Source: a virus
Lineage: Duplodnaviria > Heunggongvirae > Uroviricota > Caudoviricetes
DNA length: 36,639 nucleotides
IMG/VR virus record: IMGVR_UViG_2548876956_000006
Direction: 5' to 3' (one strand)
Shown here: positions 2,761 through 36,639 of the stretch, one piece after another
How the letters are laid out: every line of letters starts with the position of its first letter
Numbering within the stretch: the first letter of the stretch is position 1
The notes under the pieces: model-generated
Seen by the model: the letters and a program-made list of their open reading frames with translations, nothing else
What the model was told of the DNA's origin: nothing
The model's database searches: none
Translations under genes and position numbers: made by a program

Positions 2761-3411
2761 TTACAAATTAAAAAACATCCTAGAAATGACTCCGCCTACC
2801 AAAACCCCTACGCAGATAAAGAATATTATTTCTTTTGGATAAAATCGGATTAATTCTGAAGCACGAAGGCGGACTTCTGGTAAGGTCGAATTCTCTGTGT
2901 GGCTTGATACCGATTGTTGCTCCAACCACGACAATGCAGACTGTAACTGAGAACGAGTAAGATCGTTTAAACGTCCTGTACCGAAATTGATATGGCAATA
3001 CCGCAGAAGTTTTTGTCGAAGTCCACAGTCTTCACTGTTACGTAGTAATAAACTTACAAGAGTCTTACAGGCATCATGATCTTTACATCGCTCAAGCATT
3101 GTATGCAGAAAACTCTCCGCTGTTTTATATTGATTTATTGTCATATCATCAATACCAGCTACACCAATCTCCGCATGTACTTTTTGCCAAATAATAAACG
3201 CTTCAGTATTGCTAGCTTCTGCAATAGCAGCAACCAAGCTATTTAGCTCCTTACGCTGTGCCTTAAGCAAAGGGCGAGCGTCATCATCATTATTCGAAGG
3301 GATTGCGATATTGACGGTATGAGAACCATCATATCGCTCTATCTGAATATTCTTTTCGTGAAAATCACGCCCAGCAACGCGATTGTTTGAACCGTTTGAG
3401 TTGACGGCCAT
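2761..3411 (-). CDS. Tail-anchored membrane protein (C-terminal TM helix), unknown function; cargo gene in the repressor-int operon
   Basis: 216 aa; strong SD GGAGGTGAC before the ATG; C-terminal hydrophobic segment IIFFICVGVLVGGVISRMFF; no family recognised. Confidence 0.6.
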   Translation of the reverse strand: MAVNSNGSNNRVAGRDFHEKNIQIERYDGSHTVNIAIPSNNDDDARPLLKAQRKELNSLVAAIAEASNTEAFIIWQKVHAEIGVAGIDDMTINQYKTAESFLHTMLERCKDHDACKTLVSLLLRNSEDCGLRQKLLRYCHINFGTGRLNDLTRSQLQSALSWLEQQSVSSHTENSTLPEVRLRASELIRFYPKEIIFFICVGVLVGGVISRMFFNL

Positions 3412-3426
3412 GTCACCTCCCTACTA

Positions 3427-3831
3427 TCACCTACCCTTAGTTTCGTTATAGTCACGACCAGCGATACGGTTATTACCACCAGAAATATTTAACTCACGCC
3501 CTGATGGCTGAGTTTCCTTTTCACTGCCCGCACCTTTTAAAGCCCCGATCACCGCGTTTTTTACATCTAACGAAGCTGCTCGAAAGCGAGTAATCAACTC
3601 CTGCTCATCATCGTTATAAGTTTCAGGTGAGTGAATTCCCAACACAACATACTGAACATCAAGGCCAAAACGAGACAGCGCTGCCAAATACGCAGCATCA
3701 GGAAAGCTATCTCCTTTCTCATATCTAAGCTGAGTTAGCTTTTTGACTCCACCAATGTCGCTCATAGCAACTTGACTAAGCCCCAATCTTTCCCTTTCCT
3801 CACGCAACCGCTGACCAATATCATTTTTCAT
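3427..3831 (-). CDS. HTH (XRE/Cro-CI type) transcriptional repressor, probable prophage immunity repressor
   Basis: N-terminal HTH (IGQRLREERERLGLSQVAMSDIGGVKKLTQLRYEKG); divergent from the early operon; first gene of the minus-strand operon ending in int. Confidence 0.7.
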   Translation of the reverse strand: MKNDIGQRLREERERLGLSQVAMSDIGGVKKLTQLRYEKGDSFPDAAYLAALSRFGLDVQYVVLGIHSPETYNDDEQELITRFRAASLDVKNAVIGALKGAGSEKETQPSGRELNISGGNNRIAGRDYNETKGR

Positions 3832-9275: not shown

Positions 9276-10235
9276 ATGAAAATTTGTATCGACGACGGCT
9301 CCACCAACATCAAGCTGGCATGGACTGAGAACGGCGAACGCCGCAACGCCATCAGCCCGAACAGCTTCAAGTCGGAATGGTCTGCGCCGTTCGGTGGCAC
9401 GCAGCCCGCGAACTACATGCTTGATGGCGTGCGCTATGGTTTTGATCCGGTCAGTGATCGCTTTGTCCAGACGACCGACACGCAATACCAGTACAGCGAT
9501 GTGAATGTCATTGCCATTCATCACGCGCTGGTCAAATCAGGCATCACGCCACAGGAGGTGGATATGGTTGTCACCCTGCCACTGAGCGAGTATTTCGACA
9601 CAAACGCACAGCCGGACATGGCCAACATCAACCGCAAAAAAGCAAACGTTATGCGCCCGGTGGAATACCAGAACGGCGAAGCATTCACTATCCGTAATGT
9701 ACGGGTTATGCCTGAATCCATTCCGGCTGGCTTTAAAGCACTGGCTGACATGAGTCCGTTTGAATCCCTGCTGATTGTGGATTTAGGTGGAACCACGCTG
9801 GATGTGGCAAAGGTTCAGGGACAACTGGCAGGTATCAGCCAGGTGTTTTGCGATCCACACGTAGGCGTTTCCCTGATGGCCGATGCAGTACTGTCGGTGA
9901 TGGCCACTAACGGTATGCGTACCAGTCACCACATCGCCAATACCATTATCGAACATCGCCATGATGAAGCCTGGCTGCGCCAGCACATCCACAATGACGC
10001 GCATTACGCCAGCCTGATGGCGGTTATTCGTGAAAAGGAAGAAACACTGAAACAACGCGTGATCCGCGCGCTGGCGGGTTTTTCGGGTTACGGGCGGGTG
10101 ATGGTTGTCGGTGGCGGGGCGGAGATTGTGGCACCCGCTATCCGCGAAGCCTGCGGAGTTAATGCGACTTTCATCGCGGACGGGGTGCCACAGTTTGCTC
10201 TGGTTAATGGGCTGTACGCAATGGACAAGGAGTAA
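9276..10235 (+). CDS. parM: ParM/StbA-family actin-like plasmid-segregation ATPase
   Basis: 319 aa; N-terminus MKICIDDGSTNIKLAW plus PNSFK, QYSDVNV, VMPESIPAG, DLGGTTLDV, FSGY, VVGGGAE and LVNGLY closely parallel plasmid R1 ParM as I recall it. Confidence 0.85.
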   Translation: MKICIDDGSTNIKLAWTENGERRNAISPNSFKSEWSAPFGGTQPANYMLDGVRYGFDPVSDRFVQTTDTQYQYSDVNVIAIHHALVKSGITPQEVDMVVTLPLSEYFDTNAQPDMANINRKKANVMRPVEYQNGEAFTIRNVRVMPESIPAGFKALADMSPFESLLIVDLGGTTLDVAKVQGQLAGISQVFCDPHVGVSLMADAVLSVMATNGMRTSHHIANTIIEHRHDEAWLRQHIHNDAHYASLMAVIREKEETLKQRVIRALAGFSGYGRVMVVGGGAEIVAPAIREACGVNATFIADGVPQFALVNGLYAMDKE

Positions 10236-10239
10236 ACCA

Positions 10240-10551
10240 ATGACGACACCAACCAGACGAATAAGTTTCTATCTGAAGCCCGCCGCCGTCAAGAACGAAG
10301 GCGAAGCATGCGCCTGGCTGGACAGCCTTACACCAGAAGCCCGTAAAAACGGCCAACGCGTGGCTTTTCTGGCTGGGCTGGCGCTTCTGAAAATGAATCC
10401 GGCAGAGGCTTACCGACTGGCAGCATGGGCTGACGATGAGGCGTTATCAGTGACACAAACCAGGACAGAACGCCCCCTGTCACAGCCAGTACCAACCGCA
10501 CAGATAACCAGTCAGATGGCCGGAAATATCAGGGCGTTATTTCCTGAATAA
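10240..10551 (+). CDS. parR: ParR-like small DNA-binding partner of ParM
   Basis: 103 aa directly after parM; RRISFYLKP...AWLDSLTPEARKNGQRVAFLAGLALLK...IRALFPE parallels R1 ParR (RRTIAFKLNP...DSIPQGERSR...AALTAGLAL...LRSLFPKE). The ORF track extends the frame upstream into parM; the ATG at 10240 is the plausible start. Confidence 0.6.
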   Translation: MTTPTRRISFYLKPAAVKNEGEACAWLDSLTPEARKNGQRVAFLAGLALLKMNPAEAYRLAAWADDEALSVTQTRTERPLSQPVPTAQITSQMAGNIRALFPE

Positions 10552-10614
10552 CACAACGTCAGGGCGAGTTCGCCCTGATCTCCATCTCAGAACATAAACA
10601 AGAAGAGCGACTTA

Positions 10615-10998
10615 ATGAGCAAAATCAACTATCAGGCATTACGTGAACGTTATTCACCTGCACCAGTACCAAAATGCCCTATTTGCGGCGAAGAAATGTC
10701 AATTCAGCGAATATCTGGAGCACTGGTTGTTTATGGCTGCTCCGGTTATGGTGATGAAGGAGATTTCAAAATTGGTCGAACTCTTGCCGACGAACATTAT
10801 GAAAAATCACGCGTAACAGTGTTGGATGTCGGGGATCCTGAAGTATTGGCGCTACTTGATTGGCTGGAAACCAAAGACAACCGAATCGCTGAACTGGAAA
10901 AAATCGCCACTGACTATGCACTTAAATTCCAGAAAGCACAGGACGCATTAAAGTACGCCGCTTTGCTGCATAGCAGGACAGTGCAGCTACAAGACTAA
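10615..10998 (+). CDS. Hypothetical protein with CxxC and C-terminal coiled-coil-like region
   Basis: 127 aa; CPICGEE...YGCSGYG; no family recognised. Confidence 0.45.
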   Translation: MSKINYQALRERYSPAPVPKCPICGEEMSIQRISGALVVYGCSGYGDEGDFKIGRTLADEHYEKSRVTVLDVGDPEVLALLDWLETKDNRIAELEKIATDYALKFQKAQDALKYAALLHSRTVQLQD

Positions 10999-11088
10999 CT
11001 TAAAGCGGAAGATTAATACATGGTGAGTCGGGGTAATTTGTTTTTATCCCGACAAATAAACAAAAAAGTGGACTATCTCTGTAGTATC

Positions 11089-11619
11089 TTATTCAGCATC
11101 GTCTCGTGCAGTCTGTGCATACGTCACAACAACGCCCAATGCATTAGTTTTCTTTTCAACATAGATAATATTGTCATATTCATAGTTACCATACGGATAG
11201 CAAATAAGAATATTTTTATGCAGATCGGGATCATCAACAAACGCTCCGGAACAGCTTCTTGAACTACCGGATGTATACTCATACGGTGCAACATATGATG
11301 ATGTTACTCCTGGTAAAAAATAAGTCACCATCATAAGAGGGATAATCAGGAATATCCCTGTAAGAATGCAAGAGCCAGCATAAACCTTCAGGTATTCCGA
11401 CAGTCCTTTCCAGCCACTTTGCTTCACTACCCCCCTCTTCACCAGAAACAAGGAGAAGAAAAAGGACATACCCATACTACACAAGATGTAATAATTGGAT
11501 ATACGCGAATTAAGATATGTAATCCTGTAGATATCTGCCCTCCACCAGTAAAAGAGGAAAATAATCCCTAGCACTGAAACAGTCATGCAAATCAAATAAG
11601 GATATGAATCTTTCTTCAT
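11089..11619 (-). CDS. Multi-pass membrane protein, AT-rich cargo in the A-cos (P2 tin/old-position) hotspot
   Basis: 176 aa, low-GC, opposite strand to the flanking operon; about three hydrophobic helices (VSVLGIIFLFYWW, FFFSLFLV, CILTGIFLIIPLMMVTYFL) followed by a soluble C-terminal segment. Confidence 0.55.
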   Translation of the reverse strand: MKKDSYPYLICMTVSVLGIIFLFYWWRADIYRITYLNSRISNYYILCSMGMSFFFSLFLVKRGVVKQSGWKGLSEYLKVYAGSCILTGIFLIIPLMMVTYFLPGVTSSYVAPYEYTSGSSRSCSGAFVDDPDLHKNILICYPYGNYEYDNIIYVEKKTNALGVVVTYAQTARDDAE

Positions 11620-26085: not shown

Positions 26086-26093
26086 AGGTGAAC

Positions 26094-26672
26094 ATGGATT
26101 TCAGAATGAGTGAACAATCACGGACCATAAAAATTTATAACCTGCTGGCCGGAACTAATGAATTTATTGGGGAAGGTGATGCATACATTCCACCTCATAC
26201 AGGTCTGCCTGCAAACAGTACCGATATTGCACCACCAGATATTCCGGCAGGCTTCGTGGCTGTTTTCAACAGTGATGAGGCATCGTGGCATCTCGTTGAA
26301 GACCATCGGGGTAAAACGGTTTATGACGTGGCATCAGGGGACGCGTTATTTATTTCTGAACTCGGTCCGTTACCGGAAAATGTTACCTGGTTGTCGCCGG
26401 ATGGAGAGTGTCAGAAGTGGAACGGCACATCCTGGGTGAAAGATGCAGTAGCAGAAAAACTGTTTCGGGTACGGGAGGCAGAAGAAACAAAAAACAGCCT
26501 GATGCAGGTAGCCAGTGAGCATATTGCGCCACTTCAGGATGCCGTAGATTTGGATATTGCGACGGAGGAAGAGGCATCGTTACTGGCTGCATGGAAGACA
26601 TATAGGGTATTGTTGAATCGTGTTGATACAACAGTAGCAGCGGATGTTGAGTGGCCAGTCGCCCCACAATAA
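26094..26672 (+). CDS. G: Tail fibre assembly protein, P2 gpG/Tfa-like
   Basis: Conserved position after the fibre gene; SD gaggtg is 5 nt before the ATG at 26094. Confidence 0.75.
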
Positions 26673-26715: not shown

Positions 26716-27288
26716 CTATTTATACAATACAACACCACTCTTTTTAGTTATATATGTGCAGTTTGATGGTATATCTTTATTTATAAAAGACATTGCACCT
26801 ATTTTTACATTATCCCCAATTTTACGTGATAATCCAATGATGCAACAATTAGCTCCGATATCAACGTTACTACCAATTTTCACTCTTGAACCAGGCATGT
26901 CACCATCTATCTGTCCAATGGTAGTATTCTGTCGTAATACCAGATTTTCACCCGCATCAACAGCAAAATGAACAACAATTCCAGCATGATGGGGAATTGT
27001 TAACCCTTTTCCAATATTTGCTCCCAATCCTATTTCACAACCAAATTTGTTAATTATTTTACTGTTTAACTTTTTGGCTGCTTTCTTATGTGATTTATTA
27101 CCATTAATATACATTTCGTTAGCCAACCGCCACCAGAACAGGAAATTCCGGTTACGCTGCTTTTTCTCTCTTAAAAGCCTCCAGATATCCATACGTTTCC
27201 GCCGAATCACTTCATGTTTCCAGAAGTTTTTTAAATTAGTAGAGTTCCCAAATAAAACAAAGTGAATTGCCATTAAGTAAGACAGCAC
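26716..27288 (-). CDS. Hexapeptide-repeat acetyltransferase (serine acetyltransferase/WcaB-like, left-handed beta-helix); cargo in the P2 Z/fun position
   Basis: Repeated [LIV]G-x4 hexads (IGLGAN, IGKGLT, IGSNVD, IGANCC, IGLSRK, IGDNVK) and the LTIPHHAGIVVHFAVDAGENLVLRQNTTIG core; AT-rich; probable GTG start after SD AAGGAG (the ORF track extends to 27321). Confidence 0.7.
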   Translation of the reverse strand: MLSYLMAIHFVLFGNSTNLKNFWKHEVIRRKRMDIWRLLREKKQRNRNFLFWWRLANEMYINGNKSHKKAAKKLNSKIINKFGCEIGLGANIGKGLTIPHHAGIVVHFAVDAGENLVLRQNTTIGQIDGDMPGSRVKIGSNVDIGANCCIIGLSRKIGDNVKIGAMSFINKDIPSNCTYITKKSGVVLYK

Positions 27289-27444
27289 GAAAATCTCCTT
27301 AATTATTATTTCAGACCACACATGTTATAAGGTTGAGAGATTATAAAATCCTGTTATTTGTTATTCAAAAACAATTTTCTGAGAAGGACATACAGCAGCA
27401 AGTCGCCAGTCACCTTCATCAGGAAATTGGCGACATACGTTAAA

Positions 27445-33188: not shown

Positions 33189-34298
33189 ATGACCGACACC
33201 ACCATGCAATTGCTCAGTCAGGGCACAGACCCCATGAAAATGCCGGATTTTGATATTCTCGCCGAGGGTAAAACGCTGTCCGGCGTGGCAGAACGCCTGA
33301 TGGGCCTGTCACTGACCGACAACCGGGGATTTGAGGCGGACCAGCTCACCATCACGCTGGATGATGCGGATGGCCAGTTGCAGCTACCGCCACGGGGCGC
33401 GCGTCTGACGGTTCTCATTGGCTGGAAAGGGGAACCGCTGACAGAAAAAGGCACTTACATTGTTGATGAAATCGCTCACGAAGGACCGCCGGACAGGCTG
33501 ACTGTTTCAGCCAGAAGCGCAGATTTTCGGGATGAATTTAACGTTAAACGTGAGGTGTCCTGGCATGATGTGACCGTTGAGCGTGTGGTATCCGCCATCG
33601 CTCATCGGTATGGTCTGAAACCGCAAATCAGCGAAATGCTGATGGATATCGAAATCGACCACGCCGACCAGACCGAAGAAAGCGACATGTCCTTCCTTAC
33701 GCGCATGGCGGAAATGCTGGGCGCAATCACCACGGTAAAAAGCGGTAATCTGTTATTCATCATGCCCGGCGGTGGCGTGAACGCACAGGGCCAGCCGTTG
33801 CCATCGTTCGCCATCACACGCAGCAGCGGCGATCGCCATCAGTTCCGCATTGCTGACCGCGAGGCGTATACGGGGGTACGCGCTTACTGGCTTGATCTTA
33901 ATTACGGGAAAAAGAAAAAAGTCAGCGTGAAATGCCGCAAACCGCCAAAACCCAAAAAGGAGAAAAGCAGCAGCCGTGAAGGTGATTATATGGAAGGTGC
34001 GGAAGGCAATGTGTTTGTGTTACGCAAGACCTATCAGAACGAGCAGGCAGCAAGACGCGCAGCGGCGGCAAAGTGGCAGCAGCTACAACGCGGAGCCGCA
34101 TCATTTTCCATCACGCTGGCGCGTGGACGCGCAGAACTCTACCCCGAAATGCATGGCACGGTAACAGGATTTAAAAGCGAGATTGATAATCAGGACTGGA
34201 TTATTGCAAAAGCCGAGCACACCATTGATAACAGCGGCTTTACCACGCAGCTTGAGCTTGAAGCAAAAATCCCGGAATGGATAGCAGAAACAGAGTGA
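33189..34298 (+). CDS. D: Tail protein D (late control gene D family)
   Basis: LTDNRGFEADQLTITLDDADGQ, SARSADFR, SWHD, QTEESDMSFLTRMAE, ITRSSGDRHQF, AYTGV and GFTTQLELE parallel P2 D; start taken at the ATG with SD GGGAGG (the ORF track starts at 33057). Confidence 0.85.
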   Translation: MTDTTMQLLSQGTDPMKMPDFDILAEGKTLSGVAERLMGLSLTDNRGFEADQLTITLDDADGQLQLPPRGARLTVLIGWKGEPLTEKGTYIVDEIAHEGPPDRLTVSARSADFRDEFNVKREVSWHDVTVERVVSAIAHRYGLKPQISEMLMDIEIDHADQTEESDMSFLTRMAEMLGAITTVKSGNLLFIMPGGGVNAQGQPLPSFAITRSSGDRHQFRIADREAYTGVRAYWLDLNYGKKKKVSVKCRKPPKPKKEKSSSREGDYMEGAEGNVFVLRKTYQNEQAARRAAAAKWQQLQRGAASFSITLARGRAELYPEMHGTVTGFKSEIDNQDWIIAKAEHTIDNSGFTTQLELEAKIPEWIAETE

Positions 34299-34498
34299 AC
34301 CATTCAGATGTATTAGTGCAGACCTGAACGGCCACGCTTACGAGATAGAACAAAATCTAATATGGCAGTCCGCCCTGTACCAGTAAGCGGACATTGTAAC
34401 AGTAAAGCAAATTAAAGCCTTAGATGTGTTAGTTTAAGCATTGTTTTCTGCTACGTTTTCTTTTCTCTTTTATTTTTCTTTGCGTTTCCTTTTTCATT

Positions 34499-35890
34499 TT
34501 ACGCTTTTTTATCAATATTTTTTTTGAGATCACTCATATGGTATGACCACTTAATCAGACTATCTGGATATTGCTGATCAAAAATAATCCGTGTTTCGTA
34601 ACCATTTCCAATAAAAACACTCTGTCCATCAACACTAGAAACTACCCCCTTCCCATTGATGGAAAGCATACTCATAGGATTAATCTTCGGAGATGGAAAA
34701 TCCAATAACTCATAAATCCCGGGGTATTTTTTATTTGCTCTTTCTACGAAACGACGATGATCGAAACACAGCACAACAATTAGATTGCCATTAATGATAT
34801 CCAGAAGCAATTTATCAGGTAGGTTCAAACTAAAAAATGGACGTGATAAAGCATCTGAAAAGCTATCAAGAATATTAAACACTCTCCCCGATATTCTAGA
34901 TACCTCCATCCATCCATTAAAACCGCAAAAACCCATATTAGAATTAATATATGCCCCAAGGAATAAACAATCATTAATGTTAGTAATCGCCCAAGTTTTA
35001 CCGTTATATATCTCATACCAAAGCTCAATAATCTTATCTGTATAAAAATCGGGACAAAAATCTCTGTCATGAATTGTTACTTGAGACTGAAAAAAGTTAT
35101 CAAATCCCTTACCAGTCTCAATGACATCTATCACATTTTGAGCTCTTTTAAGTTGACGCTTAGCTCTGTCATAGTGTTTCAAGTCATTTTTATCAAGGTC
35201 TTTTCTATAAATCTCATCAAAATGAAGACATTTACTTTGCACTGAGAACATAGCCGCCTTTGAAAACTCTATATTTTTCTTACCACTTTTTATTTCAATT
35301 AAAGTTATGCCTTGCTGAGGTATTAACGCAAGTAAATCACCAGTATGTACAAACGTAGTAATATCAGTGATAACAGCTATAGCCATCGGATCAGCATTGA
35401 TTTCATCTGCTACCACCATTGAATCATGTATATTAAATATTGTCAGATTGTCAGTATTTCTATTTATAGGTAAACGTCTTATAAACGAGTGTTCATTGCG
35501 GAATATCGCCCATACAATTGAATCAATACACCTACGTAAAATCCTAATTTCTAGTCTAGTCCTTTCAATATTGCGTATACACTTCTTCTTTGTTTCATAG
35601 TCCTTTTTTGAATGGGCACAATTCTTTTCTAACTCCAGATCCTTGATTTGAGAAAGCCTGATAATGAGTTCATCAGCTATGATCCTTTGCGCCCGCTTCC
35701 ATCCACTTAACAGGTGTTTGAAGTTTTCGATGGAATCAAGCTCCCTTTGCTGAGCTCCCACATTTTCCCCTTGCCGTATCAGCATCATTAACGTCTTGAT
35801 GAGTTCATTGAACTCAGAAGGAAGATGTTCCCATATATTTATGAACGGCCTATACTTTGCCCGCATTTTATCATTGTTATTTTTTGCCAT
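34499..35890 (-). CDS. Uncharacterised ~465-aa protein, AT-rich cargo between D and ogr; possible nuclease-like (PD-(D/E)xK-type) core
   Basis: Long ORF with ~33% GC on the strand opposite to D and ogr; no family recognised; segment TGDLLALIPQQGITLIEIKSGKK fits a D...E-x-K pattern. Start ambiguous (GTG at 35914 or ATG at 35890). Confidence 0.55.
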   Translation of the reverse strand: MAKNNNDKMRAKYRPFINIWEHLPSEFNELIKTLMMLIRQGENVGAQQRELDSIENFKHLLSGWKRAQRIIADELIIRLSQIKDLELEKNCAHSKKDYETKKKCIRNIERTRLEIRILRRCIDSIVWAIFRNEHSFIRRLPINRNTDNLTIFNIHDSMVVADEINADPMAIAVITDITTFVHTGDLLALIPQQGITLIEIKSGKKNIEFSKAAMFSVQSKCLHFDEIYRKDLDKNDLKHYDRAKRQLKRAQNVIDVIETGKGFDNFFQSQVTIHDRDFCPDFYTDKIIELWYEIYNGKTWAITNINDCLFLGAYINSNMGFCGFNGWMEVSRISGRVFNILDSFSDALSRPFFSLNLPDKLLLDIINGNLIVVLCFDHRRFVERANKKYPGIYELLDFPSPKINPMSMLSINGKGVVSSVDGQSVFIGNGYETRIIFDQQYPDSLIKWSYHMSDLKKNIDKKA

Positions 35891-35937
35891 CTTCAATTGA
35901 TAATCTCCTCTCACAATATTGTCATCACTAACAAATT

Positions 35938-35955
35938 TATTACACTTAAAAGTGT
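35938..35955. promoter_or_regulatory. Perfect palindrome TTACACTTAAAAGTGTAA upstream of the cargo ORF (candidate operator)
   Basis: 18-bp dyad about 25-45 bp upstream of the candidate starts; a related dyad CACTTAAAGTG lies at 36063-36073 upstream of ogr. Confidence 0.25.
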
Positions 35956-36133
35956 AAGATAATTGATAAACAAAAATCCTGCCACGTTGTTATTCAAATA
36001 TTGGAAAACTTATCGCCCGTTTAGACTTCATCTAACATCTTCTGACTTTATCACCATCCTTCACTTAAAGTGGGAAGGAGTTGGAATCTGCATTGATGAA
36101 ATTTAGAATAGCACCACCTAAAGGGAGGTTGCT

Positions 36134-36394
36134 ATGTTCCGTTGTCCGCTTTGTGGCGCATCTGCCCGTATCCGCACAAGTCGTCCGGAAAATGATTCAA
36201 ACACCGTCCGGCAAAAGTATTACCAGTGTAACAACCTGGAATGCGGCGTATGCTTCTCAACACTGGAAGCTTTCCATAAATTCACATCGAAACACACCTC
36301 AGGCGTTCGATCTTCAGAAGGTATCCCGTGGCATGAACTGCCAACGTCACACAGGGGAAACAATCAGATGAGTTTGCCTTTACCTCAGAATTAA
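36134..36394 (+). CDS. ogr: Ogr/Delta-family zinc-finger late transcription activator
   Basis: MFRCPLCGASARIRTSR...YYQCNNLECGVCF matches the Ogr C2C2 zinc-finger pattern (P2 Ogr MFHCPLCQHAAHARTSR...YHQCQNVNCSATF as recalled). Confidence 0.85.
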   Translation: MFRCPLCGASARIRTSRPENDSNTVRQKYYQCNNLECGVCFSTLEAFHKFTSKHTSGVRSSEGIPWHELPTSHRGNNQMSLPLPQN

Positions 36395-36639
36395 CGAGCA
36401 GAATTGCCGAAGCAACAAAAAAACGATAGATTACGCGCGGGTGCCTTTCGGCTGATGGTCGGAGGGTATGCCCGAAGGCCAGATGTGGAAAGGCCCCGGA
36501 AAACATCTCTGTTTAACCGAGGCCCTAACCATCTAACCTTAGCAAGTGATAGGTTAGCGCCTCCCCTAAAAAGGAGCAAGCGCTTGTATGGGTCCACCAC
36601 ATATTGCAATTTTTATTCTCTTTTAAAATATATTCCACG

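Follow-up and report, generated by a model that had tools for sequence, protein, structure and literature searches.

The window (the whole stretch of DNA analyzed, 36,639 nucleotides), which belongs to a P2-like E. coli prophage, carries a foreign cargo gene between tail gene D and ogr, at a site where related phages have either no cargo or a different one. With about even confidence, this gene is considered a prophage moron whose product is an anti-phage nuclease that acts alone and represents a new, unnamed family. As a foreign gene from a large unnamed family that is found near anti-phage systems, and with a probable nuclease as its product, it is a good candidate for an immune gene. The cassette that contains it is flanked by two core genes:

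33189 to 34298, plus strand: tail gene D, the left flanking core gene (Pfam Phage_GPD, E 5e-17; RefSeq annotations of relatives)
34309 to 36103, no strand assigned: low-GC cargo cassette (GC profile; boundary alignment with the empty site of phage Chuche and with two phages that carry other cargo)
34499 to 35890, minus strand: cargo gene, 463 aa, member of the unnamed family (ORF list; homologues start at the equivalent Met)
36134 to 36394, plus strand: ogr, the right flanking core gene, a late transcription activator (ORF list)

The cassette (∼1.8 kb, 33–36% GC) sits between the stop codon of D (34296–34298) and the conserved ogr leader; the product of ogr is annotated as an ogr/Delta-like zinc finger protein in 99%-identical E. 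coli prophage copies. In 300-nt windows, GC was 0.32–0.40 over 34300–36100 versus 0.51–0.61 in the flanking tail genes, which, together with the ORF list, confirmed an earlier note on this DNA that had described one long minus-strand ORF in a low-GC segment between D and ogr. That note had also regarded the segment as an insertion, D being followed directly by ogr in canonical P2. Flank alignment placed the cassette limits at ∼34309 and ∼36103, and because the gap between D and ogr is only ∼42 bp in related phages such as Chuche, which has no cargo there, the cassette is indeed a true insertion. The site was free of cargo in Chuche and in three of five sampled E. coli prophages; other cargos found there were proteins of 340 aa (with a weak HEPN match) and of 132 aa, a member of the YecA family, and HxsABCD. 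Different cargos have their ends in common, ∼50 bp on the left and ∼60 bp on the right. The ogr lineage of this prophage occurs in ∼1200 of 5426 complete E. coli genomes. The two classical defence hotspots of P2 are gpA-gpQ and Z/fun (PMC9122126, PMC13586616), and D-ogr lies outside both. Thus, the proposal that the gene is a moron at an established P2 defence junction holds for the single-gene, low-GC moron, not for the junction. The cargo gene is not mentioned in the papers on P2 hotspots that were consulted. The gpA-gpQ site of the same prophage contains a ParM-like gene, an Ead/Ea22-like gene, and an unknown ORF.

Two starts are available to the cargo ORF, an ATG at 35890 (463 aa) and an upstream GTG at 35914 (471 aa; 34499 to 35914); the ATG is the one used by homologues and in the RefSeq annotations of near-identical copies. 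The region upstream of it contains the following elements:

35940 to 35957, no strand assigned: palindrome TTACACTTAAAAGTGTAA, perfect 8+2+8, located 50 bp upstream of the ATG at 35890
36062 to 36072, no strand assigned: second “dyad” CACTTAAAGTG, at chance level and not conserved
36081 to 36109, plus strand: promoter-like TTGGAA-17-TAGAAT for ogr (consensus scan and right-flank alignment; a consensus match only)

Two related dyads had previously been placed here, at 35938–35955 and 36063–36073; apart from the coordinates, which are corrected above, they reduce to one marginally non-random palindrome. A perfect 8+8 palindrome was found in 3% of Markov-simulated regions (P about 0.03), and TTACACTTAAAAGTGTAA, a possible operator, is unchanged in 99%-identical E. 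coli copies; no such dyad was present upstream of homologues in other genera. In contrast to the first, the second is at chance level (arms of at least 5 occurred in 77% of simulated regions) and is broken by A36063G in E. coli relatives, and a shared operator composed of both dyads was therefore rejected. The −35 element of the promoter-like sequence for ogr lies in the right flank common to all cargos, and its −10 element spans the right cassette boundary into sequence that is also present at empty sites. The consensus scan yielded no minus-strand promoter upstream of the cargo gene.

The cargo protein was modeled with AlphaFold2 (pLDDT 86.8), and the model was compared with the conservation pattern of its family, yielding the following parts:

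35501 to 35890, minus strand: N-terminal helical region, residues 1–130 (AlphaFold2 model, pLDDT mostly 84–97 there)
35105 to 35449, minus strand: conserved core, residues 148–262 (AlphaFold2 secondary structure; weak Pfam matches; hhalign)
35288 to 35365, minus strand: motif D176-x8-D185-x13-E199-x-K201, then G203 (invariant in 105 members)
35153 to 35167, minus strand: invariant R242 and Q246 on the next long helix (100% in 105 sequences)
34502 to 35041, minus strand: C-terminal alpha/beta domain, residues 284–463 (conserved C308, G312, Y314, P351, G430, P442)

The N-terminal region contains a long predicted helical hairpin (residues 53–94 and 98–129), which may have a role in oligomerisation or sensing, and the C-terminal domain has no recognizable fold relative. 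In the core, a helix (151–165) is followed by three beta-strands (171–174, 186–190, 194–198) and by further helices (the first being 204–219). D176, D185, E199, and K201 show no variation among 105 members, most of which share 20–40% identity with the window protein. The spacing between D176 and D185 is fixed at 8, whereas that between D185 and E199 varies from 12 to 18, so that the absolute pattern of the family reads D-x8-D-x12-18-E-x-K-x-G plus R-x3-Q. These seven invariant residues characterize a family of 710 representative clusters, and the D/E/K residues singled out earlier from this one protein (within TGDLLALIPQQGITLIEIKSGKK, residues 183–205) proved to be the invariant ones. The classic PD-(D/E)xK signature consists of D-xn-E-x-K on consecutive beta-strands, then a conserved Gln on a helix. 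In the model, D185 is located at the start of strand 186–190 and E199-x-K201 at the end of strand 194–198, both strands lying between helices 151–165 and 204–219; the motif thus occupies a predicted beta-hairpin within an alpha-beta-beta-beta-alpha unit, and D…(D/E)-x-K on consecutive strands is present both in the sequence and in the predicted secondary structure. By comparison with Q295 of Shedu, Q246 is a candidate “motif IV” glutamine. D176 is away from the usual position of motif I.

Profile libraries were searched with the window protein (Pfam, 2025; NCBIfam, 2026; PADLOC-DB v2.0.0, 2023, 5027 models). Neither Pfam nor PADLOC returned any family at E ≤ 1, and NCBIfam and PHROGs returned nothing meaningful, which bears out the earlier statement that the product cannot be assigned to a family: it matches no curated one in Pfam, PADLOC, PHROGs, or NCBIfam. 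Weak matches to a PHROG and to the ExoVII small subunit (E 0.016–0.1) were dropped as noise. Across the 105 members, PADLOC gave scattered single matches, two SduA models being weakly matched. When core segments were compared with Pfam, the only recurrent matches were SduA_C (4 of 36 segments, best E 0.0021) and NERD (3 of 36, best E 0.066). Alignment of the family with NERD by hhalign, using a profile built from the NERD protein of plasmid pO111_1, resulted in P = 0.016 and a probability of 2.9%; the 100 kb of this plasmid that were inspected did not contain the E. coli Shedu protein BAI39103.1. All of these similarities to nucleases are below family thresholds. Searches of PDB sequences with three profiles (close family, 150 members, core only) produced chance matches to chaperonin 11, RbsD, and NPR4, and structure comparison, a check proposed with the original inference of a PD-(D/E)xK nuclease, did not recognize a restriction-endonuclease-like fold. 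That inference is partly supported, by an invariant motif on a predicted hairpin; its support from SduA_C, NERD, and hhalign is sub-threshold. Because the motif lies on a predicted beta-hairpin, and because two nuclease families are the only recurrent weak Pfam matches, a nuclease with a PD-(D/E)xK-like site is plausible but unproven. Alternatively, the protein might act in defence or abortive infection without being a nuclease, the D/D/E/K/R/Q cluster binding a nucleotide, a metal, or a phage protein and the effector activity residing on a novel fold. This is a minor possibility, considering that D-x(12-18)-E-x-K on consecutive strands with a Gln on a helix is precisely the classic signature, and that the weak matches which recur point to nucleases.

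The window copy differs from the longest E. coli alleles at its 3′ end:

34505 to 34510, minus strand: A6 homopolymer on the coding strand (T6 in the window, versus T7 in allele L001, 465 aa, and T8 in allele L002, 487 aa)
34429 to 34503, minus strand: remnant of a Lys/Arg-rich tail, RKMKKETQRKIKEKRKRSRKQCLN up to its stop, out of frame and intact (translation matches the tail of homologue P0001)

Because full-length alleles contain A8 and the window copy A6, the reading frame shifts and ends at the stop codon at 34499–34501; 24 residues are lost, and with them the basic C-terminal tail of the subfamily. Among the 40 of 141 cluster members inspected, the 463-aa allele was on 15 contigs, the 465-aa allele on 80, and the 487-aa allele on at least 14, and further shortened alleles of 340, 338, and 181 aa occur in E. 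coli. Given this truncation and the other truncated alleles (181–340 aa), the window copy may be decaying; that it is a non-functional remnant, whatever the role of the family, is nevertheless very unlikely. None of the seven invariant residues or of the predicted domains is damaged, the exact 463-aa protein recurs on its 15 contigs, and the basic tail, although found in 27 of 31 close homologues, is present in only 2 of 105 sequences of the wider family and missing also from the close homologues P0029 and P0030. S136F was rejected as a damaging change, since this position is I, T, V, S, or L across the wider family.

A second homology search, with the 105-member alignment, added hardly any proteins to those from the first. 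The database names of the family members are all “hypothetical protein”, the N-terminal extensions of members of ∼670–690 aa contain no Pfam domain, and the RefSeq accessions WP_001107526 and WP_038820202 are not cited in the literature searched. Homologues are always single genes and were located at three distinct P2 hotspots, in an ICE, and in several islands. In P2-like prophages, the homologue of Enterobacter lies between gpV and gpS, and that of Raoultella is flanked by gpU and a tail-fibre gene; in Serratia, the homologue is inside the transfer region of an ICE, and in Dickeya, Pseudomonas, and Morganella homologues are in islands. At all 10 loci checked, the gene was AT-rich compared with its own flanks. 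Among the neighbors are GajA (2e-242) and GajB (7e-191), that is, Gabija, plus an Argonaute-associated (Aga) nuclease in Aeromonas; PD-T7-1 (1e-156) in Yersinia; PDC-S19, directly adjoining the homologue, and PDC-S26 nearby in Dickeya; and, in one contig, PD-T4-5/AbiD 42 bp upstream. At the about ten loci inspected, a small sample rather than a statistical census, the family is hence found in variable hotspots or defence islands beside known systems, which is one part of the operational definition of a defence gene. The suggestion that the gene is a candidate for defence has in this way gained support from context, both from these neighbors and from the other mobile-element hotspots.

The same distribution is relevant to two further explanations. 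A nuclease with an accessory role for the mobile elements themselves, in recombination or repair, in exclusion of plasmids or satellites, or as a selfish homing-type endonuclease, would fit a lone gene that hops among unrelated insertion points and is present in many kinds of element, including an ICE transfer region, and such hotspots also house cargo other than defence genes (ParM, the YecA-family protein, the Hxs genes). This is unlikely: the direct neighbors in islands are anti-phage systems, no integrase or transposase accompanies the gene, and the same flanks surround different cargos at D-ogr, so that exchange does not require a cargo-encoded function. A gene for counter-defence or otherwise of benefit to the phage (an inhibitor of host immunity, or non-catalytic superinfection exclusion) could merely share hotspots with defence genes, since variable regions of prophages carry anti-defence genes too (PMC9122126), and no defence model recognizes the cargo gene. 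It is highly improbable here, because proteins of ∼460–490 aa with an enzyme-like invariant site are atypical of anti-defence, because homologues reside in chromosomal islands beside Gabija and PD-T7-1, away from phage, and because tblastn found no copy of the gene in 50,697 phage records.

If the gene does encode an anti-phage nuclease, the lysogen would produce the protein from a promoter belonging to the gene itself, with transcription running opposite to that of the late genes. Until infection is signaled, the protein may be kept inactive or oligomerised by its N-terminal helical hairpin and its C-terminal alpha/beta domain; it would then cleave the nucleic acid of the invader or, with an abortive outcome, that of the host. 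The motif on the beta-hairpin would be a highly diverged, metal-dependent PD-(D/E)xK site (NERD/Shedu-like), and affinity for nucleic acid is probably raised by the Lys/Arg tail that the enterobacterial subfamily carries. The natural A6, A7, and A8 alleles constitute a built-in test of the role of this tail, and as seven residues are invariant in the family, a mutational design is already defined. Were this explanation true, a new and fairly common family of single-gene immune nucleases would have been missed by Pfam (2025), NCBIfam (2026), and PADLOC (2023), and D-ogr would be a further cargo site of P2-like prophages beside gpA-gpQ and Z/fun, with several unexplored cargos in E. coli genomes of the same ogr lineage. 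If non-defensive, the family would still be a large group of mobile-element proteins without a recognizable fold relative.

Compared with classical P2 cargo (old, tin, fun/Z, and the systems of Rousset et al. 2022), the gene is similar in being an accessory gene of low GC that occupies a fixed junction of conserved P2 genes and is swapped among otherwise similar prophages; its expression, too, would not depend on the late operons (PMC9122126, PMC13586616). It differs in its location at D-ogr, not gpA-gpQ or Z/fun, and in that its product is unrelated in sequence to Old, Tin, or any PADLOC model. The NERD domain (PF08378) occurs in ZwsA of Pseudomonas aeruginosa, a stand-alone nuclease in which E535, D567, E580, and K582 are required for defence (10.64898/2026.04.06.716636). 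In the single local alignment from hhalign, SDLT/G-D185/E199-x-K201 is in register with SDLT/D71/E84-x-K86 of NERD. Nevertheless, the window protein does not match PF08378 (the best of the 36 core segments being sub-threshold), has no VHS, DUF647, or S4 domain, and carries R-x3-Q ∼40–45 residues past the lysine instead of the QNP..QN block of NERD.

From Shedu (SduA; DUF4263/PF14082, SduA_C), the family is set apart by several features: the window protein matches neither PF14082 nor the SduA models of PADLOC, a few distant members doing so weakly; a motif-I glutamate is not clear; and Shedu structures were not among the matches listed in any fold search. Moreover, the putative core of the cargo protein is central (motif residues 176–246 of 463, with ∼260 residues after it), whereas the nuclease domain of Shedu is C-terminal, following a variable N-terminal sensor, and the cargo protein ends in the alpha/beta domain of ∼180 aa instead. 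Despite these differences, SduA_C is the most frequent weak Pfam match of the family core, and Shedu is, as is proposed for the cargo protein, a single-protein defence system in which a nuclease is combined with non-catalytic regulatory domains. Its PD-(D/E)xK motif, D-x14-E-x-K with a downstream Gln (motifs II, III, and IV in B. cereus: D249, E264/K266, and Q295; 10.1101/2023.08.10.552793), has a putative counterpart in D185-x13-E199-x-K201 and Q246. Stand-alone nucleases of both the Shedu and the NERD type are established defence effectors (10.1101/2023.08.10.552793; 10.64898/2026.04.06.716636).

Between tail gene D and ogr, the P2-like prophage that makes up the window (integrase, gpA-like replication gene, portal, terminase, and tail genes are present) carries one long ORF on the minus strand, which fills the gap.

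Tail gene D and ogr with the gene between them
ends at 34298: tail gene D, left flank of the cargo (Pfam Phage_GPD, E 5e-17)
34499-35890, minus strand: cargo gene, 463 aa from ATG
36134-36394: ogr, right flank (ORF, and annotation in E. coli copies)

GC content was 0.32-0.40 between D and ogr versus 0.51-0.61 in the flanking tail genes, and GC profile and ORF (34499-35890, or to 35914 from an alternative upstream GTG) agree with the low-GC, single-gene segment described in an earlier note made from the sequence alone. The ATG is the start used by homologues and the one annotated in RefSeq for E. coli copies of 99% identity. That the segment is an insertion, as also claimed there, is borne out by the related phages Chuche, P88, and Shae_phiSM, in which D and ogr are separated by ∼42 bp without cargo. 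The cargo gene is a genuine single-gene moron at D-ogr.

In the literature, gpA-gpQ and Z/fun are treated as the classical P2 hotspots (PMC9122126; PMC13586616). D-ogr, though little described, is a real cargo site of P2. The cargo of the window recurs there in 21 genomes. At the same junction, the cargo of phage 500465-2 is another minus-strand gene, of 340 aa (L009:2320-3342), with a weak, sub-threshold match to RiboL-PSP HEPN (E 1.2e-4), and that of phage 520873 is a 132-aa unknown gene (L010:2358-2756). The ogr lineage of the window was found in 1200 of 5426 complete E. coli genomes; in five evenly spaced genomes sampled from it, three sites were empty and two were occupied, one by a YecA-family gene and one by a four-gene cassette.

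Cargos at D-ogr in sampled E. coli genomes
L026:2096-3235: YecA-family (SEC-C) gene, E. coli 99_0849
L027:1-3272: HxsABCD His-Xaa-Ser radical-SAM cassette, E. coli 96_1414B

None of the alternative cargos scanned matched PADLOC. Junction alignment placed the cassette limits at ∼34309-36103. Because different cargos share flanking sequence in this alignment (left, ∼50 bp; right, ∼60 bp), they are likely exchanged by recombination within these flanks. A direct repeat, AGATGT(A/G)TTAGT, lies at 34306-34317 and 34422-34433, 116 bp apart, its second copy overlapping the stop codon of the full-length allele, and an inverted repeat, GTCCGC-N13-GCGGAC (34368-34392, left flank), also occurs in phage 500465-2, whose cargo is a different one. 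Cassette exchange may have left these repeats behind, or they may form a terminator of the D operon.

Two related dyads had been proposed upstream of the gene. The first is real, but its coordinates are 35940-35957; this perfect palindrome (8+2+8), located 50 bp upstream of the cargo start codon, is only marginally unexpected by simulation (P ∼0.03); the second (36062-36072) is at chance level and is disrupted in E. coli relatives. No related dyad was found upstream of homologues elsewhere. A consensus scan detected no minus-strand promoter upstream of the cargo gene; the right flank common to cargos supplies a −35-like TTGGAA 17 bp upstream of TAGAAT, the latter being present also at empty D-ogr sites.

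Further low-GC or cargo-like genes occur elsewhere in the prophage, among them those of its gpA-gpQ hotspot (9276-11619).

Other low-GC or cargo-like genes
2761-3411, minus strand: 216-aa ORF, low GC (∼0.39), no Pfam match
9276-10235: ParM-like partition gene, gpA-gpQ hotspot (E 4e-82)
10615-10998: Ead/Ea22-like gene, gpA-gpQ hotspot
11089-11619, minus strand: 176-aa ORF, gpA-gpQ hotspot, low GC, no Pfam match
26716-27321, minus strand: 201-aa ORF, low GC, weak, sub-threshold hexapeptide-transferase match (E 4e-5)

The 216-aa ORF is possibly another cargo gene; on either side of it are the integrase (1377-2378) and a regulator of the HTH type (3427-3831). The 201-aa ORF adjoins the tail-fibre assembly gene (26088-26672), a Z/fun-like position. 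In near-identical prophages of E. coli, and in related phages, ogr is followed after ∼190 bp by a toxin gene of the Hok/Gef (MokW-like) type; in the window, this gene would start near 36585 and be cut by the window end (36639).

Full-length enterobacterial homologues of the cargo protein (485-487 aa) have a C-terminal tail rich in Lys and Arg. The coding-strand A-run exactly at the boundary between conserved core and basic tail varies: it is A6 in the window (34505-34510) and A7 (465 aa) or A8 (487 aa) in relatives, and the tail-coding DNA (34429-34503) is intact in the window but out of frame. Among the E. coli contigs of 40 of the 141 cluster members, 15 encode 463 aa, 80 encode 465 aa, and at least 14 encode 487 aa. 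The A8 tract (GAT AAA AAA AAG CGT) is also present in the homologues of Dickeya, Serratia, and Aeromonas; it might act as a switch prone to slippage, or simply encode lysines. Only 2 of 105 wider-family members have the Lys/Arg tail, so the protein may remain active without it. Some decay does occur, since shorter alleles of 181-340 aa also exist.

The contexts of homologues are varied: P2-like prophages, in which they lie between gpV and gpS (Enterobacter) or between gpU and a tail-fibre gene (Raoultella); others reside inside an ICE transfer region (Serratia), next to an integrase (Dickeya), in islands interrupting a Mg-chelatase/comM-like gene (Pseudomonas), and in a small island (Morganella). 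Ahead of the Morganella homologue, and in its orientation, are two genes without annotation (367 and 315 aa). Across the loci examined, no partner gene was conserved. Scanning of neighbour genes with PADLOC identified known or candidate defence genes, some of the known systems being complete; besides those listed, PDC-S26 is nearby in Dickeya.

Neighbours of homologues identified with PADLOC
L003:6685-7983: PDC-S19, adjacent, Dickeya
L020:4200-7344: Gabija GajAB, directly upstream, Aeromonas media (GajA 2e-242, GajB 7e-191)
L020:9746-10798: Argonaute-associated nuclease, downstream, Aeromonas media
L021:5290-6660: PD-T7-1, nearby, Yersinia (1e-156)
L022:6901-7959: PD-T4-5/AbiD, 42 bp upstream, one contig

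The homologue gene was more AT-rich than its surroundings in 10 of 10 loci. Anti-phage genes typically show mobile contexts, defence neighbours, and AT-richness, as seen here in a small sample of ten loci; hotspots also carry non-defence cargo. The genomic company of the family is defensive. The cargo gene is a solid experimental candidate, albeit one of little surprise.

As the earlier note had stated, the protein could not be assigned to a family: Pfam, PADLOC, and NCBIfam gave no match. PHROG yielded noise-level matches only, tblastn no match in 50,697 phage records, and a PDB sequence search no relative with any of three profiles; all database names read "hypothetical protein." An exhaustive HMMER scan retrieved 710 representative clusters at E<=0.001, of which 197 also passed E<=1e-30; most have 440-500 aa and are matched over full length. 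The family is thus large and without a model in any library searched here. AlphaFold2, supplied with a 31-sequence alignment, returned a confident model (pLDDT 86.8, pTM 0.87).

Regions of the AlphaFold2 model
N-terminal helical region: long hairpin, helices 53-94 and 98-129
central alpha/beta unit
C-terminal alpha/beta domain

The PD-(D/E)xK-like pattern noted earlier lies in residues 183-205. Seven residues (D176, D185, E199, K201, G203, R242, and Q246) are invariant in 105 members, most of which share just 20-40% identity with the window protein, with 8 residues always between D176 and D185, 12-18 between D185 and E199, and usually 44 between K201 and Q246. In the model, D185 is at the start of strand 186-190 and E199-x-K201 at the end of strand 194-198, preceded by a third strand (171-174), with helices on both sides; as modelled, D185 and E199-x-K201 would occupy the canonical positions of PD-(D/E)xK motifs II and III. 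The glutamine on the following helix recalls motif IV of Shedu (10.1101/2023.08.10.552793). When the Pfam comparison (E<=10) was restricted to the 115-residue core, taken from 36 diverse members, 40 families were matched. The two recurrent ones, SduA_C (4/36, best E 0.0021) and NERD (3/36), are PD-(D/E)xK nucleases. The SduA_C signal also came from full-length members and, weakly, from the PADLOC SduA models. A profile-profile comparison of the family with NERD, for which an alignment was made in this analysis, gave a single local alignment (P only 0.016, probability 2.9%), in which SDLT, D71, and E84-x-K86 of NERD are in register with SDLT, D185, and E199-x-K201 of the family. The pattern itself stood, invariant and on predicted strands; the similarity to SduA_C and NERD is sub-threshold, and the model does not cleanly dispel the refuting case named earlier, a predicted structure without a nuclease-like fold. 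The likeliest reading, favoured with moderate confidence, is a putative, diverged PD-(D/E)xK core. The protein would then most likely act on its own as a regulated nuclease of the PD-(D/E)xK type, by a logic like that of Shedu and of NERD effectors such as ZwsA; by their defining models, it lies outside both families.
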